Assembly (NCBI GenBank): GCA_951406725.2
Contig: OX597818.1
Span: 20,584,001 to 20,648,000, forward strand
Length of the DNA: 64,000 nt
Reading direction: 5' to 3'
From: Octopus vulgaris
Taxonomy: Eukaryota
Numbering within the stretch: position 1 is the first letter of the stretch; every line of letters starts with the position of its first letter. Positions 2,738-59,250 of the stretch are shown one piece after another. A program made the translations under genes and the position numbers. The notes beneath the pieces were generated by a model that ran no database searches, had not been told where the DNA came from, and worked only from the letters and a program-made list of their open reading frames with translations.

Positions 2738-3056
2738 GGTGAAAAGGAACACACGAGTTGATATATATGAAAAAACAAGTAAAAAATAGAAAATGCTAAA
2801 ATAATTTTATAGTGAACATTTCAGTACCGGTTTCACAAGTGCAAACAAGGGAGTCAGAGAAAGGCAGAATGCCACTTAAATCTGAACACTACTATAGAAA
2901 TATTCTTTTAAAAAAACTTTTCTTCTAATTTTTCTAAATTTAATTATTTAATCGTTACAGTTGAAAAGGTCTCAAAATGACCGAAACCGGTACTGAAATG
3001 TTCACTATAAAATTATTTTAGCATTTTCTATTTTTTACTTGTTTTTTCATATATAT
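2738..3056 (+). mobile_element. Penelope-like pLTR remnant as a foldback (arms 2761-2834 and 2983-3056) within (TA)n
   Basis: 74-bp inverted arms and an internal hammerhead fold; homologous copies at about 39638-39993 and 58941-59250. Confidence 0.7.
2958..2995 (+). ncRNA. Minimal type I hammerhead ribozyme, U3-A8 core variant
   Basis: CAG TTGAAAA GGTC-TCAAAAT-GACC GAAA CCGG TA CTG: stems I and II, palindromic stem III (ACCGGT) and a GUA site. Confidence 0.7.
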
Positions 3057-3117
3057 ATATATATATATATATATATATATATATATATATATATATATAT
3101 ATATATATATATATATA

Positions 3118-3300
3118 GGGAGAGTTTACGAAAAAAACAAAAGACGAAGACAGGTGGTATACAAAACAAACAGATGTATTAGTATAACGCTCAGAAATAG
3201 AAAAAGTCTTTTACGTTTCAAGCCTACACTCTTCTACAGAAAAGGACACAGAAAACAAGGAGAGAAAAAAGGAGAGAAAAAAAGGAAAGAAAAAAAGGAT
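3118..3300 (-). mobile_element. Penelope-like pLTR fragment (CUGUNGA hammerhead family), hammerhead at about 3207-3245
   Basis: Minus strand CTTTT CTGTAGA A GAGT-GTAG-GCTT GAAA CG TA AAAGA; homologous to the copies at 13450, 30321 and 33277. Confidence 0.7.
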
Positions 3301-3773
3301 ATATACACAACTACATAAACACATGTACTATACCAATATATATATATATATATATATATGTATCTCTTCTTCCTTATACATATACATGTGTGTGTGTGTT
3401 TGTTTGTATGTATATATACCTAATATATATATATATATATATATATATAGAGAGAGAGAGAGAGAGAGAGAGAGAGAGATAATGTTGTGGTGATAGACAT
3501 TAATACCTCTATCTGATTAAAAAGTGGACTCGTCGAACTCTGATAATGAGTAACGTGTCGCGTTGAGACAAGAAGGTTTGGGGTCTCGCGTGTTGGTTGT
3601 TGGAAGTTATGTCTATGAATGCATTGCTTTACTCCCGCTTCGTTAATATCATATATCCGCAACCAATGATATAAAAGATAGATAGATAGATAGAGAGAGA
3701 GAGAGAGAGAGAGAGAGAGAGAGAGAGAGAGAGAGAGAGAGAGAGAGAGAGAGAGAGAGAGAGAGAGAGAGAA

Positions 3774-3959
3774 CAGTGTTCCGTAACCTTTTTTCACTTG
3801 TGATACACTTATGTTCTTTTCAAAATTCGGCGGCACACCTGAACTGAAAATATAACTAAGAGTATAGGGATAAAACTTATATTCAAGTTACACTGCAGCA
3901 CACCTGACATCGTCTCATTGCTAACCGATGTGCCGCGGCACACTGGTTGCTGAGCACTG
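3774..3959. mobile_element. hAT-like MITE
   Basis: Termini CAGTGTTCCGTAACC and GGTTGCTGAGCACTG, with internal GCGGCACAC subterminal repeats. Confidence 0.65.
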
Positions 3960-4878
3960 AGATAGATAGATAAAGAGAGAGAGAGGGTAGGTGTGTGTGT
4001 GTGTGTGTGTGTGTGTGTGTGTGTGTATTTGTTTTATGGACGATAATATCGAAATTTTATCGGTCGTCAGCCTCCTTAGACCGAGTCTACACCTGTATCG
4101 AATCCTATATTATATTAATGCTTATTCCTAGGAACCCTTACGCAGACAAGTTTCAAACTATTCCTTGATGGTTAGAGGCAGGCACATAAATTTAAATGTA
4201 TGAAACCTTCAGTAGTAGGTTTATTATCTTGTTTACCATAGACGCGCGCGCACACACACACACACACACACACACACACACACACACACACACACACACA
4301 CACACACACACACACACACACACACACACACGCGCACACACAGATGCAGACAATAGAAAATATATTGAAAACTTGACTAGGAAGTAAAAAAAGTTGTTAA
4401 AATTGTTTGACAATTTTCCTAAAGTTTTTGGGCTTACGGGTATTACTATTTTTATATTTCAATTTAAAATCCTTTTTTTTTTTCTTCCCCTTTAATTCAG
4501 CTCTGAAAGAAAGAAATTTATTACTTGACAGCTGACAATAGGCCTCTAACTAATGCACAATACATTACTTCTTTCCTGAAAAAAATACAAAAAGAAAGAA
4601 ACATTTAAAAATGATCTTAGGTTGGAAAACATCAGAAATACAATACAAATAGTATTAAAGGCATGCAATATAGGAAGATATTGGAGGTCGTCTTGGTTCA
4701 AACAACAAATTCTGTCACCAATGAACAAGCAACGGGCGAAATACGACAGGTGAGAATTTTCAACAGCAATAGCTTCAACTACGACCTTTGACATCCTTTG
4801 TTCTAGGCAGGAGCGATGTCAAACAGCGCCAGGTAGAAATAACGTATGTAATATGAACCATGGAGGGAACTTCTACAC

Positions 4879-55918: not shown

Positions 55919-56587
55919 AGTATACACGATGCGCTTCCACGCAGTTTCTGTTCATCAAATTCCCTCGTGGCACTGATCGGACCAGTGTTATAGTAGAAGA
56001 CACTTGGCTAAGGTGCCAGGCAGTTAAACTGAAGACGAAACCACGTGGTTACAAAGCTTCTTAAACACTCAGCCCTGCCTGTGCCAAATATATTTAAGGG
56101 TTTCTTTCTTTATATATTAATTTAGAAGTTTGTAAATCTTGTTTCAAAAATTTTGACCCTTTCAAAATTAAATGGAAGGCATCACACTGGCTGAAATAAA
56201 TTTTTTAGATAAATATATTTGAGTCTTTGACACTTTTAATTCCTCTGTGTGCGTTTGTGTGTGTGTGTGTGTGTGTGTGTGTGTGTGTGTGTGTGTGTGT
56301 GTGTGTGTGTGTGTGTGTGTGAACACGTACAAGTGAACACGTACAAGTGTACATCGCAACCAGATCCACTTTCCATGGTCGTTGTAGTGATCCATATCTA
56401 TAAGCCAGTGTCCTCCATGACCAGCTGGAAACTATTACATATGTTTACATTATACATGTGTGTGTGTGTATACATACATGCATACATACATATATATGTA
56501 CAGACCCGCCCATACACTGACTCTAAATGCTTACATATACACCTACATACATTCACAACTACTCCTTTGATACTTTTGATATTTCAT

Positions 56588-57230
56588 TGAAGAAACCTTG
56601 GATCTAGGTTAGAAACCAGCTCTTTCTCCATCTGCAAGAAATAAAACTAAGTAATAGCATACATACCTGCATAAATACACATATACGTACGTACGTACCT
56701 ACCTACCTACCTACCTACATACATACATACATACATACATACATACATACATACATACATACATACATACATACATACATACATACATACATACATACAT
56801 ACATACATACATACATACATACATACATACATACATACATACATACATACATACATACATACATACATACATACATACATACATAAATACATACATACAT
56901 ACATACACGAGAAAGCTAATTCGAAGACTACAGATCCAATCAGTTACTAGAATTGTAAAAATCTGTAAAACTTTCCAGAAGTTTAGCACTGAAATACATA
57001 TGCTCATGTCTAGATATGCAACTATATGCATGAGAGTACATACATAAAGCAAAACATACAAATCTGCACATATACATACATACATACATACATACATACA
57101 TACATACATACATACATACACACATTATATACATACAAAAATATCCTGTTGATGTTGAATTTCCAATGAAGGAGCCTTGGATCTAGGTTACAAACTGGCT
57201 CTTTCTCCATTGGCAAGAAATCTTGAAATA
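56588..57230 (+). mobile_element. RLE-type LINE 3' ends in tandem within (CATA)n arrays
   Basis: Tail at 56588-56660; RKLIRRLQIQSVTRIVKICKTFQKF plus UTR at 56908-57230. Confidence 0.8.
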
Positions 57231-57789
57231 CATACATACATACATACATACATACATACATACATACATACATACATACATACATACATACATACATACA
57301 TACGTACGTACGTATGCACGAGTTCTCTGTGTATAGATAGATAGATATATAGCTAAATAGATAGATAGATAGATAGATAGATAGATAGATAGATAGATAG
57401 ATAGATAGATAGATAGATAGATAGATAGATAGATAGACAGATAGATAGTGTGTGAATGCCTGCACGTTTGCGTAGATATGTGTATGTAGATAGGAAGAGA
57501 AAAATACACAGACCGATAGATCGATCGATAGATAGATGCATACATGCATACATACATGCATACATACATGCATACATACATACATACATACATACATACA
57601 TGCATGCATGCATACATACATACATACATACATACATACATACATACATACATACATACATACATACATACATACATACATACATACATACATACATACC
57701 TATATAAGCAATATGTATACTGCTGTGTGTGTGAGAGAGAGGGAGAAGGAGAGTTAGTATGTAGATAGAAGACATGAAGTTAATTATTG

Positions 57790-58220
57790 GCTTCAAATTT
57801 TTGCACAAGGCCAGGAATTTCGGAAACGGGGTAAGTCGACCCCCGACAGTATTTGAACTCATAACGTAAAGTCGGAATAAATGCCACTAAGCGTTTTGTC
57901 TGGCTCGGTAACAACTCTGCCAGCTAATCGCTTTCATCAAGTTAATTATTACAAAGACAAACGTGTAGCTATACAAATTTGAACCTGATGAATTATGTAA
58001 CATTGTGTAAGGCAGTAAGCTGGCAAAATCGTTAGCAAGCGGACAAGGTGTTAAGCGATATTTCTTCCGACTTTATGCTCTGTGTTCAAATCCCACCGAG
58101 GTCAACCTTGTCTTTCATCTTTTCAGGATCGATAAAATATGTAACAGTCAAGCACTGGGGTCGAAGTAATCGACTAGCCCCTCCCACCAAAATCGCAGCG
58201 TTGTACCTATAGTAGAAAGA
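57790..58220. mobile_element. Head-to-head SINE family B pair
   Basis: Minus copy at 57790-57935 and plus copy at 58009-58220. Confidence 0.75.
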
Positions 58221-58940
58221 ATTAAAATAGGTCAGTCCAATCCTGAACTAAAGTTATCTCCTCCCCCTAAAAAAAAAAATTTTTTTAAATGCCCGCCTAG
58301 GTTTCTTTTCACAGTGAGACTAAATTACATTCGCATATAAATCCATATATTTATCATTCTATACATTTATCACCCGCTGTTATTGTATCCTTGTAGTTAT
58401 TTGAACAATTATTCGTCATTCGAAACAGAGGGTTCCTACTTCACTATTCTGAAATTTTTTTTTGTATCTGTCACGATTTTCAAAGCAACTGAACTTCGTG
58501 TTATAAATGGAAAGCTTTGTTTAACGACGCACTGAAGGAGCATAATTATTCCAATGAATGAACTCAAATGCATGTATCAAAGAATTTTATTTTTTCTTGA
58601 CAATATATCCAAATGCATTGATGTCAATTATGTCATTTGTATTTCCCTCAGTTAATAACTGGTTTAATCCCCTAAAATGACGGTATTAGTGTAAGATCAT
58701 CGATTTAATTCCATCAAACAATTTACCAGCCTTTCCTGTGTTGAGCAGGCCTTTTATCAGTTCATCATTAACATGTTTGTGAGTGTGTGTGTGTGTGTGT
58801 GTGTGTGTGTTTGTGTTTATGCTTGTGTATGTATATACTCATATTCACACATATATCACATGTATAGACATATATATATATATATATATATATATATATA
58901 TATATATATATATATATATATAATATATATGTGTGTGTGT

Positions 58941-59250
58941 GGAAAAAAAGTCAAATTAGAAAATGCTAAAATAATTTTATAAAAAACATTTCAGTACCGG
59001 TTTCAATCATTGAGACTTTTTCAACTGTAACAATTAAATAATTAAATTTAGAAAAATTAGAAGAAAAGTTTTTTTAAAAGAATATTTTTATAGTGTTCAA
59101 ATACAAGTGGTATTTTCCTTGTTTCTGCCTGTCTCTGTCTCTCTTGTTTACTCTTGTGGGTTCGAGGTCCTTGTGAATTCTTGGTAGGAAAGAGGAGAAG
59201 AAAAAGAAGGAGGAGGAGGAGGAGAAGGGGAAGAAGAAGAAGAATTTCAT
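58941..59250 (-). mobile_element. Penelope-like pLTR (U3-A8 family), hammerhead at about 58992-59027
   Basis: CAG TTGAAAA AGTC-TCAAT-GATT GAAA CCGG TA CTG. Confidence 0.7.

Follow-up and report, generated by a model that had tools for sequence, protein, structure and literature searches.

Hammerhead-like motifs with variant cores in likely Penelope-like element ends of Octopus vulgaris

Minimal hammerhead motifs in a 64-kb window

Retrozymes are non-autonomous tandem repeats in which each monomer carries a canonical type I hammerhead. In contrast, no tandem arrays of hammerhead motifs were found in the 64,000-nt stretch of Octopus vulgaris DNA analysed here (contig OX597818.1, positions 20,584,001 to 20,648,000 of the forward strand; hereafter the window). 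To judge from their sequences, the motifs of this window are very probably minimal type I hammerhead folds located in the likely 3' ends (pseudo-long terminal repeats) of several families of Penelope-like elements, which persist as solo, 5'-truncated and likely dead copies.

The closest described systems are the minimal hammerhead ribozymes of metazoan Penelope-like elements (Cervera and De la Peña 2014, PMC4209133); here and below, statements on published work refer to the available portions of the papers cited. These ribozymes display the same type I order, with a short stem I and a palindromic stem III, and the extra base after A9 that is found here in families B, C, D and E. As in the window, many families occur per genome, mostly as solo truncated copies, and opposite-strand pairs are encountered. 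A U3-A8 variant with the UUGAAAA core of our family A was reported in S. mansoni. On the other hand, none of the 56 representatives of Fig. S3 is G3-C8 or U6 and none comes from a cephalopod, whereas the stem III palindromes described here reach 6-8 nt and family A pairs U3 with A17. The natural variants of Perreault et al. (2011, PMC3088659) include U3-A8 covariation and, at position 6, a slow A6C change; these are rare single sequences, without G3-C8 or A6U among those listed, whereas the changes are family-wide here. The dimer-cleaving Penelope-like variants of Lünse, Weinberg and Breaker (2017, PMC5785218) are characterized, according to their title and to a review (PMC6765202), by a short stem III and by cleavage as dimers.

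The motif kind itself has been described before, and so have its palindrome, the extra base that follows A9 and the U3-A8 core. Two further features were not found in print: a natural, family-wide G3-C8 core (family C), which is the majority form in thousands of contig records from four organisms, and the probably derived A6U of family B. No natural G3-C8 or A6U was found in the literature searched, most subscription papers, including the likeliest source (Lünse 2017), lying outside it. The available part of a survey of Penelope-like families in Octopus vulgaris (PMC13282606) mentions neither hammerhead nor ribozyme.

The window is composed of microsatellite-rich, animal-type DNA (172 tandem-repeat rows; 14,614 of 64,000 bases masked) and also contains short interspersed elements (SINEs), pieces of long interspersed elements (LINEs) and a transposase remnant. 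A preliminary description of this DNA, made from the sequence alone, had listed about eleven hammerhead-like folds and had proposed a search in which the 3-8 pair and position 6 are free. The strict type I descriptor used here comprised a stem I of at least 3 Watson-Crick (WC) base pairs, a stem II of at least 3 bp, GAAA, a palindrome and UH, with positions 3, 6, 7 and 8 left free. Ten matches were obtained, eight with a WC 3-8 pair and two with a mismatched one. The latter two were dropped, since they merely borrow the 3' half of the motifs at 40870 and 40945 across an inverted repeat. The eight WC matches correspond to seven sites already listed (2958, 39691, 58992, 40870, 40945, 45000 and 3208) and to one unlisted site (36806). 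By comparison, 60 block-wise dinucleotide shuffles yielded on average 0.43 WC matches (maximum 3) and 0.95 mismatched ones (maximum 4), and the reversed and complemented window yielded none. The eight matches represent five independent families (A, B, C, D and G), which corresponds to a Poisson p of 9e-5 against 0.43.

All eleven folds of the preliminary description were present within 1-2 nt. It had also stated that every one of them shares the full hammerhead order, which was found for seven: those at 13542, 30400, 53227 and 42422 failed the strict descriptor. This order is observed in family A (three sites), family C (two), D, G and, with U6, at the 3208 site of family B, and the eight strict matches retain their stems plus U4, G5, A9, GAAA and UH. 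A match with a single deviation is by itself at chance level (2.7 per shuffle, maximum 6, in 20 shuffles), and the sites at 13542 and 30400 are credible because both align with 3208. Among the cores announced, UUGAAAA, GUGAACA, CUGAAGA, CUGAUGA and CUGUNGA were recovered, and those at 30400 and 53227 read CGGUCGA and CCGAUGA, respectively. The palindromic 15.1-16.1 segment of stem III, described as general, is perfect in A, B, C, D and G and imperfect in E and F. Similarly, embedding in (TA)n holds for 8 of the 12 sites, which end at most 110 nt from a (TA)4+ run, as compared with 11.8% of random unmasked positions (the threshold being post hoc); the exceptions are 30400, 40870 (tail side), 53227 and 36806.

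One may ask whether DNA that is AT-rich and rich in inverted repeats would give such motifs by chance. Relaxed descriptors do match at chance level, the singletons E, F and G are short-stemmed, and a look-alike at 17557-17599 had to be rejected (G12A, location inside another repeat, positive dimer energy). Opposed to this are the eight strict matches, to be compared with at most three in any shuffle, the sense orientation and the fixed distance between motif and element end within families, and, for family B, an endonuclease link and a layout matching a published Neptune hammerhead (see below). Chance is largely refuted for families A-D and is, overall, a highly improbable explanation, even if the match of singleton G could be fortuitous.

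The sites of families A, D, E, F and G are as follows.

2958..2995, plus strand: family A hammerhead; core UUGAAAA (U3 2961, A8 2966), palindrome ACCGGU, A17; predicted cut after 2992
2739..2834, minus strand: inverted copy of family A, 5'-truncated and starting at GAAA; one-sided tail past a short TA run
39691..39728, minus strand: family A hammerhead, copy 2; 99% like the 2958 copy over 105 nt
39790..39874, plus strand: tailed inverted copy of family A, starting 1 nt beyond the predicted cut
58992..59027, minus strand: older family A hammerhead with a weakened stem II (A-U, G-U)
45000..45087, plus strand: family D hammerhead; canonical CUGAAGA, long loop II, palindrome ACAUAUGU
44860..45190: family D insertion, with an inverted copy that stops inside the core (44860 to about 44977); tail 45126 to about 45190
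42422..42457, plus strand: singleton E; canonical CUGAUGA, 2-bp stem II, odd-length near-palindrome; 163-nt insert in (TA)n
53227..53267, minus strand: singleton F, decayed; CCGAUGA (U4C), 5' strand of stem II broken, imperfect palindrome
36806..36844, minus strand: singleton G; core UUGACAA (U3-A8), palindrome ACUGCAGU, fused to a SINE; missed by the preliminary description

Families A and B meet tail-to-tail in one (AT)34 run (3049-3117), as two independent insertions into one microsatellite.

As had been proposed for the listed sites (11/11), positions 3 and 8 are WC paired throughout, the pair being C-G in B, D, E and F, U-A in A and G, and G-C in C (12/12 sites). The eleven listed sites form six families, and the swapped pair is found in just two of these (U-A in A, G-C in C). 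In all three independent families without C3 (A, C and G), base 8 is complementary; hand arithmetic based on the 31% share of WC pairs among shuffle matches gives about 0.03 for this outcome. This represents modest support for 3-8 covariation within the window. Position A6 of the CUGA turn is present in six families, family B having U6.

Under-annotation of such motifs was borne out. A CUGANGA-only scan recovers 2 of the 12 sites, and published motif counts are therefore likely low. The Rfam search that had been suggested gave no match at the gathering threshold over the whole window; no Rfam hammerhead appeared at E<=10 in three local scans (around 40945, 42422 and 53227), nor among the 150 listed of 545 window-wide matches. 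The best match among those listed, MIR2619 at 44895-45090 (73.6 bits, gathering 113), is the family D inverted repeat. Long hairpin RNAs could arise from inversions of the family D type, and such inversions could be misread as microRNA precursors.

Other look-alikes (11652, 31965, 53111, 3172 and 30426) were rejected as being at chance level. The segment 8850-8899 on the minus strand is a possible decayed hammerhead (UUGAAGA, extra A, 3-bp stem II, ACGU palindrome) and was set aside with its stem I out of register.

The G3-C8 core of family C

Family C is represented in the window by one insertion.

40945..40994, plus strand: family C hammerhead; core GUGAACA (G3 40952, C8 40957), 7-bp stem I, palindrome AAUAUU, U17
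40870..40919, minus strand: family C hammerhead, identical inverted copy; G3 40912, C8 40907
40731..41077: family C insertion; two identical 143-nt arms, 40787-40929 and 40935-41077; a tail (40731-40786) flanks one side and (TA)n the other

The hammerheads at 40870 and 40945 are one identical sequence duplicated by inversion. The segment 40731-40930 was present, whole or in part, in 23 of 24 listed public sequencing runs (11 studies, four organisms). Contig records of one run per organism, of which one may be the source of the window itself, were aligned at 80% likeness, and 13,459, 7,991, 3,416 and 5,544 records were obtained in the four organisms. Family C is a high-copy family across these organisms.

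In each of the four runs, G3 (40912) and C8 (40907) are the majority letters and all other letters remain below 4%, with the reservation that the core lies 7-13 nt from the place where most contigs stop aligning, so that rare variants may be under-listed. Furthermore, loose-end cells at 40892 in all four runs point to a second subfamily which has another loop II and the same core. The G3-C8 pair is the family form rather than a private mutation, since it is in the majority in 4/4 runs and kept by the second subfamily. Within the motif, just positions 40874 and 40887 are variable, each change turning a pair into G-U. The depth of the public copies declines through the tail and TA-rich loose ends are found at 40786, as for an optional tail. 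The family C pattern gave no match in metagenome contigs, and the G3-C8 pattern none in 79 loci encoding relatives of the endonuclease described below.

The same swapped pair has been engineered in the laboratory. A C3G/G8C mutant partly rescued the in vitro activity of the motif of the anole Poseidon element (PMC11167929), and in a pairwise mutagenesis the C-G to G-C swap was the sole rescue within the CUGA turn, other mutants of the turn having low activity (PMC9901934). These are constructs, whereas family C possesses the swap naturally. The result of the pairwise mutagenesis favours activity of family C and argues against that of family B. By analogy with these mutants, the G3-C8 core of family C is predicted to be still able to cut.

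A natural, family-wide G3-C8 core would be evolutionary evidence for selection, in these elements, on the 3-8 tertiary pair and hence on the active fold. It would also complete the 3-8 covariation series, for which just C-G and U-A were found for nature in the literature searched.

Family B and its Neptune-type relatives

Three copies of family B with a core, one 3' end and a coding remnant were located.

3208..3243, minus strand: family B hammerhead with A6U (core CUGUAGA); A9 followed by an extra A; palindrome ACGU; end fused to the (TA)n of family A
13542..13575, minus strand: family B hammerhead, damaged; core CUGUUGA; G12A
30400..30437, plus strand: family B hammerhead, damaged; core CGGUCGA; U4G; U6 kept
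33282..33389, minus strand: family B 3' end, cut off inside stem II, no core; absent from the preliminary list
13854..14036, minus strand: C-terminal remnant of a GIY-YIG endonuclease (Penelope-like); 61-residue frame on the strand of the 13542 hammerhead and about 280 nt upstream of it

Two short near-perfect palindromes are found at 32892-32956 and 33386-33428, the second abutting the family B copy 33282-33389.

When the remnant was compared by HMMER with protein representatives, 14 library proteins were obtained, several of which are spurious (e.g. P0003). The remnant shows 43% identity with P0014 over 44 residues (E 5e-13), and its relative P0006 matches Pfam GIY-YIG above the cut-off. The remnant itself has no Pfam match, and a word-based protein search with it confirmed none of five candidates.

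Among 79 metagenome loci encoding relatives of P0014, an anchored motif was seen in 60, about 100 nt downstream of the end of the endonuclease; of the remaining 19, 18 were without anchor and one spurious anchor was dropped. On the 59 loci with at least 250 nt downstream, the strict descriptor gave 11 passes on the sense strand and one match on the antisense strand. The commonest motif of these relatives is the Acropora Neptune hammerhead of PMC4209133 (Fig. S3 and Table S1), which has the family B layout. In Acropora digitifera, this hammerhead accompanies an endonuclease whose C-terminus is homologous to the 13854-14036 remnant, and both motifs contain a 4-bp stem II, a 4-nt loop, an extra purine and the ACGU palindrome. 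Family B differs by U6 instead of A6, A17 instead of C17 and a U/A-rich stem I, and by a distance of about 280 nt behind the open reading frame (ORF), as against 100 nt in the Neptune-type relatives. Since the relatives of its endonuclease remnant carry the Neptune hammerhead with the same layout, family B is most likely a Neptune-type Penelope-like element. This agrees with the Penelope-like origin put forward in the preliminary description.

The U6 of family B is found in all three copies that have a core. As A6 occurs in 58 of the 60 relative motifs, U6 is probably derived. The frame spanning the 30400 motif was used in a protein search for codons of relatives from which position 6 could be read, and none of 34 candidates was retained; the family B pattern gave no match in viral contigs.

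Of the 60 relative motifs, 23 have U4C (core CCGANGA), a change said to reduce in vitro activity (PMC3088659), and these are concentrated in contigs of one data set. Loci L002, L003, L007-L012, L015 and L016, among others, belong here, with the motif again following the endonuclease at about 100 nt. A Penelope-like subfamily thus seems to have been amplified with an impaired U4C core.

Element ends, predicted cutting and other repeats

At four loci (2739-3048, 39640-39874, 40731-41077 and 44860-45190), a main copy fused to (TA)n is associated with an inverted, 5'-truncated copy and with a tail on one end only. An inverted copy with a one-sided tail is the architecture described for Penelope-like elements by Craig et al. 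(10.1101/2021.04.23.441226). No full Penelope-like element is present in the window, where the copies are solo, 5'-truncated fragments without intact ORF. In this respect, the dense ribozyme-retroelement system imagined in the preliminary description was not supported as a working one. Truncation at the cut site was rejected as a rule: among the four inverted copies, that at 39790 begins 1 nt beyond it and the other three begin upstream of it, and the sequencing depth of family C is also stepless there.

In the predicted monomers of A and C, stems I and II form with probabilities of 0.76-1.0, and stem III cannot close. Two motifs lying in tandem in the source elements would exchange strands by way of the palindrome, with intermolecular stems I and III, and such tandem dimers would be cut slowly after UH17, probably with the help of the element's protein. 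The 3-8 pair may be kept by complementarity rather than identity, so that lineages could fix U-A (A) or G-C (C). In family B, A6U would likely be a derived change with a weakening effect, tolerated since insertion does not depend on cutting. The copies of the window would then be relics.

Several observations weigh against the reading of the motifs as minimal hammerheads in Penelope-like ends, or against cutting by their source elements. A tblastn search with seven endonuclease relatives detected no further remnant in the window, so that A and C to G are without ORF link here; the evidence of origin is the architecture for A, C and D, the motif alone for E, F and G, and the protein link for B. 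A covariance model built from 39 relatives did not recover family B significantly (best true site 30400, E 4.9). The cofold minimum has the double-hammerhead topology for A (2958) and D, that is for 2 of 9 correctly placed sites, and the AU palindrome of family C contributes only -0.2 kcal/mol. In the predicted folds, U3 pairs with A17 in A and G3 with U17 in C; from these models, such N3-N17 pairing is predicted to act as a brake on cutting, like the inhibitory C3-G17 trap discussed in PMC3884650. For family C, variable sites are not significantly rarer inside the motif than outside (2/50 versus 16/139, p 0.16), rare core variants may be under-listed, and no step in depth is seen at the predicted cut 40876/40877 (2.93M versus 2.81M in run X1). 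The absence of a step indicates that family C copies are therefore not made mainly from cut RNA. Finally, the U4C relatives indicate that impaired cores can spread.

The N3-N17 pairing, the missing step of family C and the U4C relatives would all be expected if the variant-core families (B, C and perhaps A) descend from hammerheads and no longer cut, their cores having been fixed by drift as single master elements were amplified and the fold serving as a protein-binding or template hairpin. The low activity of CUGA-turn mutants besides the 3-8 swap (PMC9901934) points in the same direction. So does the anole element, of which hammerhead mutants left insertion in vitro unaffected and no RNA ends were found at the cut site (PMC11167929). 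Such a loss of cutting, the main alternative, is nevertheless rather unlikely in our view: G3-C8 requires two matched changes, and base 8 is complementary in 3/3 independent non-C3 families. In family B, moreover, subfamily differences are fewer in the motif (3/31) than in the flanks (26/91; p 0.049, three copies), a four-copy test giving 0/15 versus 13/68 (p 0.11).

A tentative proposal, which we regard as possible without favouring it, is that family C is a high-copy Penelope-like lineage of at least four related species in which G3-C8 is fixed and which still cleaves as dimers, much of the Penelope hammerheads of this genome being non-consensus. If so, a large part of these would be invisible to CUGANGA searches and to Rfam, and the window would offer within 64 kb a natural series (U3-A8, G3-C8 and A6U) for testing selected slow cutting, to which the N3-N17 traps and A6U would contribute, and the need for a protein. 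The role of the hammerhead in Penelope-like elements is an open question (PMC8557442, PMC11167929).

The genomic copies themselves might be active self-cleaving elements which shape host transcripts. In line with this, the seven intact listed sites and 36806 keep their stems and conserved bases, and eight runs guessed to be RNA (X12-X19 of 24) hold about half of the family C words. This is improbable. Monomers cannot close stem III, four of the eleven listed sites are damaged in core or stem, and published minimal motifs showed no monomer cleavage and low activity as dimers (PMC4209133); the anole Poseidon motif was cut only with its protein (PMC11167929). In addition, copies of the same family lie kilobases apart or on opposite strands, so that they are likely inert. 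RNA transcribed across 40787-41077 would form a hairpin of 143 bp.

Other repeats surround these insertions. The 5' part of a LINE occupies 123-2205 on the minus strand, where a Myb/SANT-like domain (PF13837, E 2e-6) precedes an apurinic-type endonuclease frame (PF14529, E 1e-14). A repeat family at 21560-22090, 45672-45987, 56576-57230 and 30542-30613 is composed of a broken frame, which we take to resemble the C-terminus of a restriction-like endonuclease, and, behind it, of a (TACA)n run and a conserved 3' segment rich in hairpins; this segment is not a hammerhead. The broken frames at 35052-36281 on the plus strand presumably resemble a hAT-type transposase. The 3' end of an abundant SINE matches the 3' tail behind the LINE remnant 39973-40407 (segments concerned: 40427-40465, plus strand; 5057-5098, minus strand, and copies; 27810-27880, minus strand), and on this resemblance the SINE and the LINE are likely a partner pair. 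A second LINE tail (27907-28227, with a copy at 61058) has the same short motif and hairpin.

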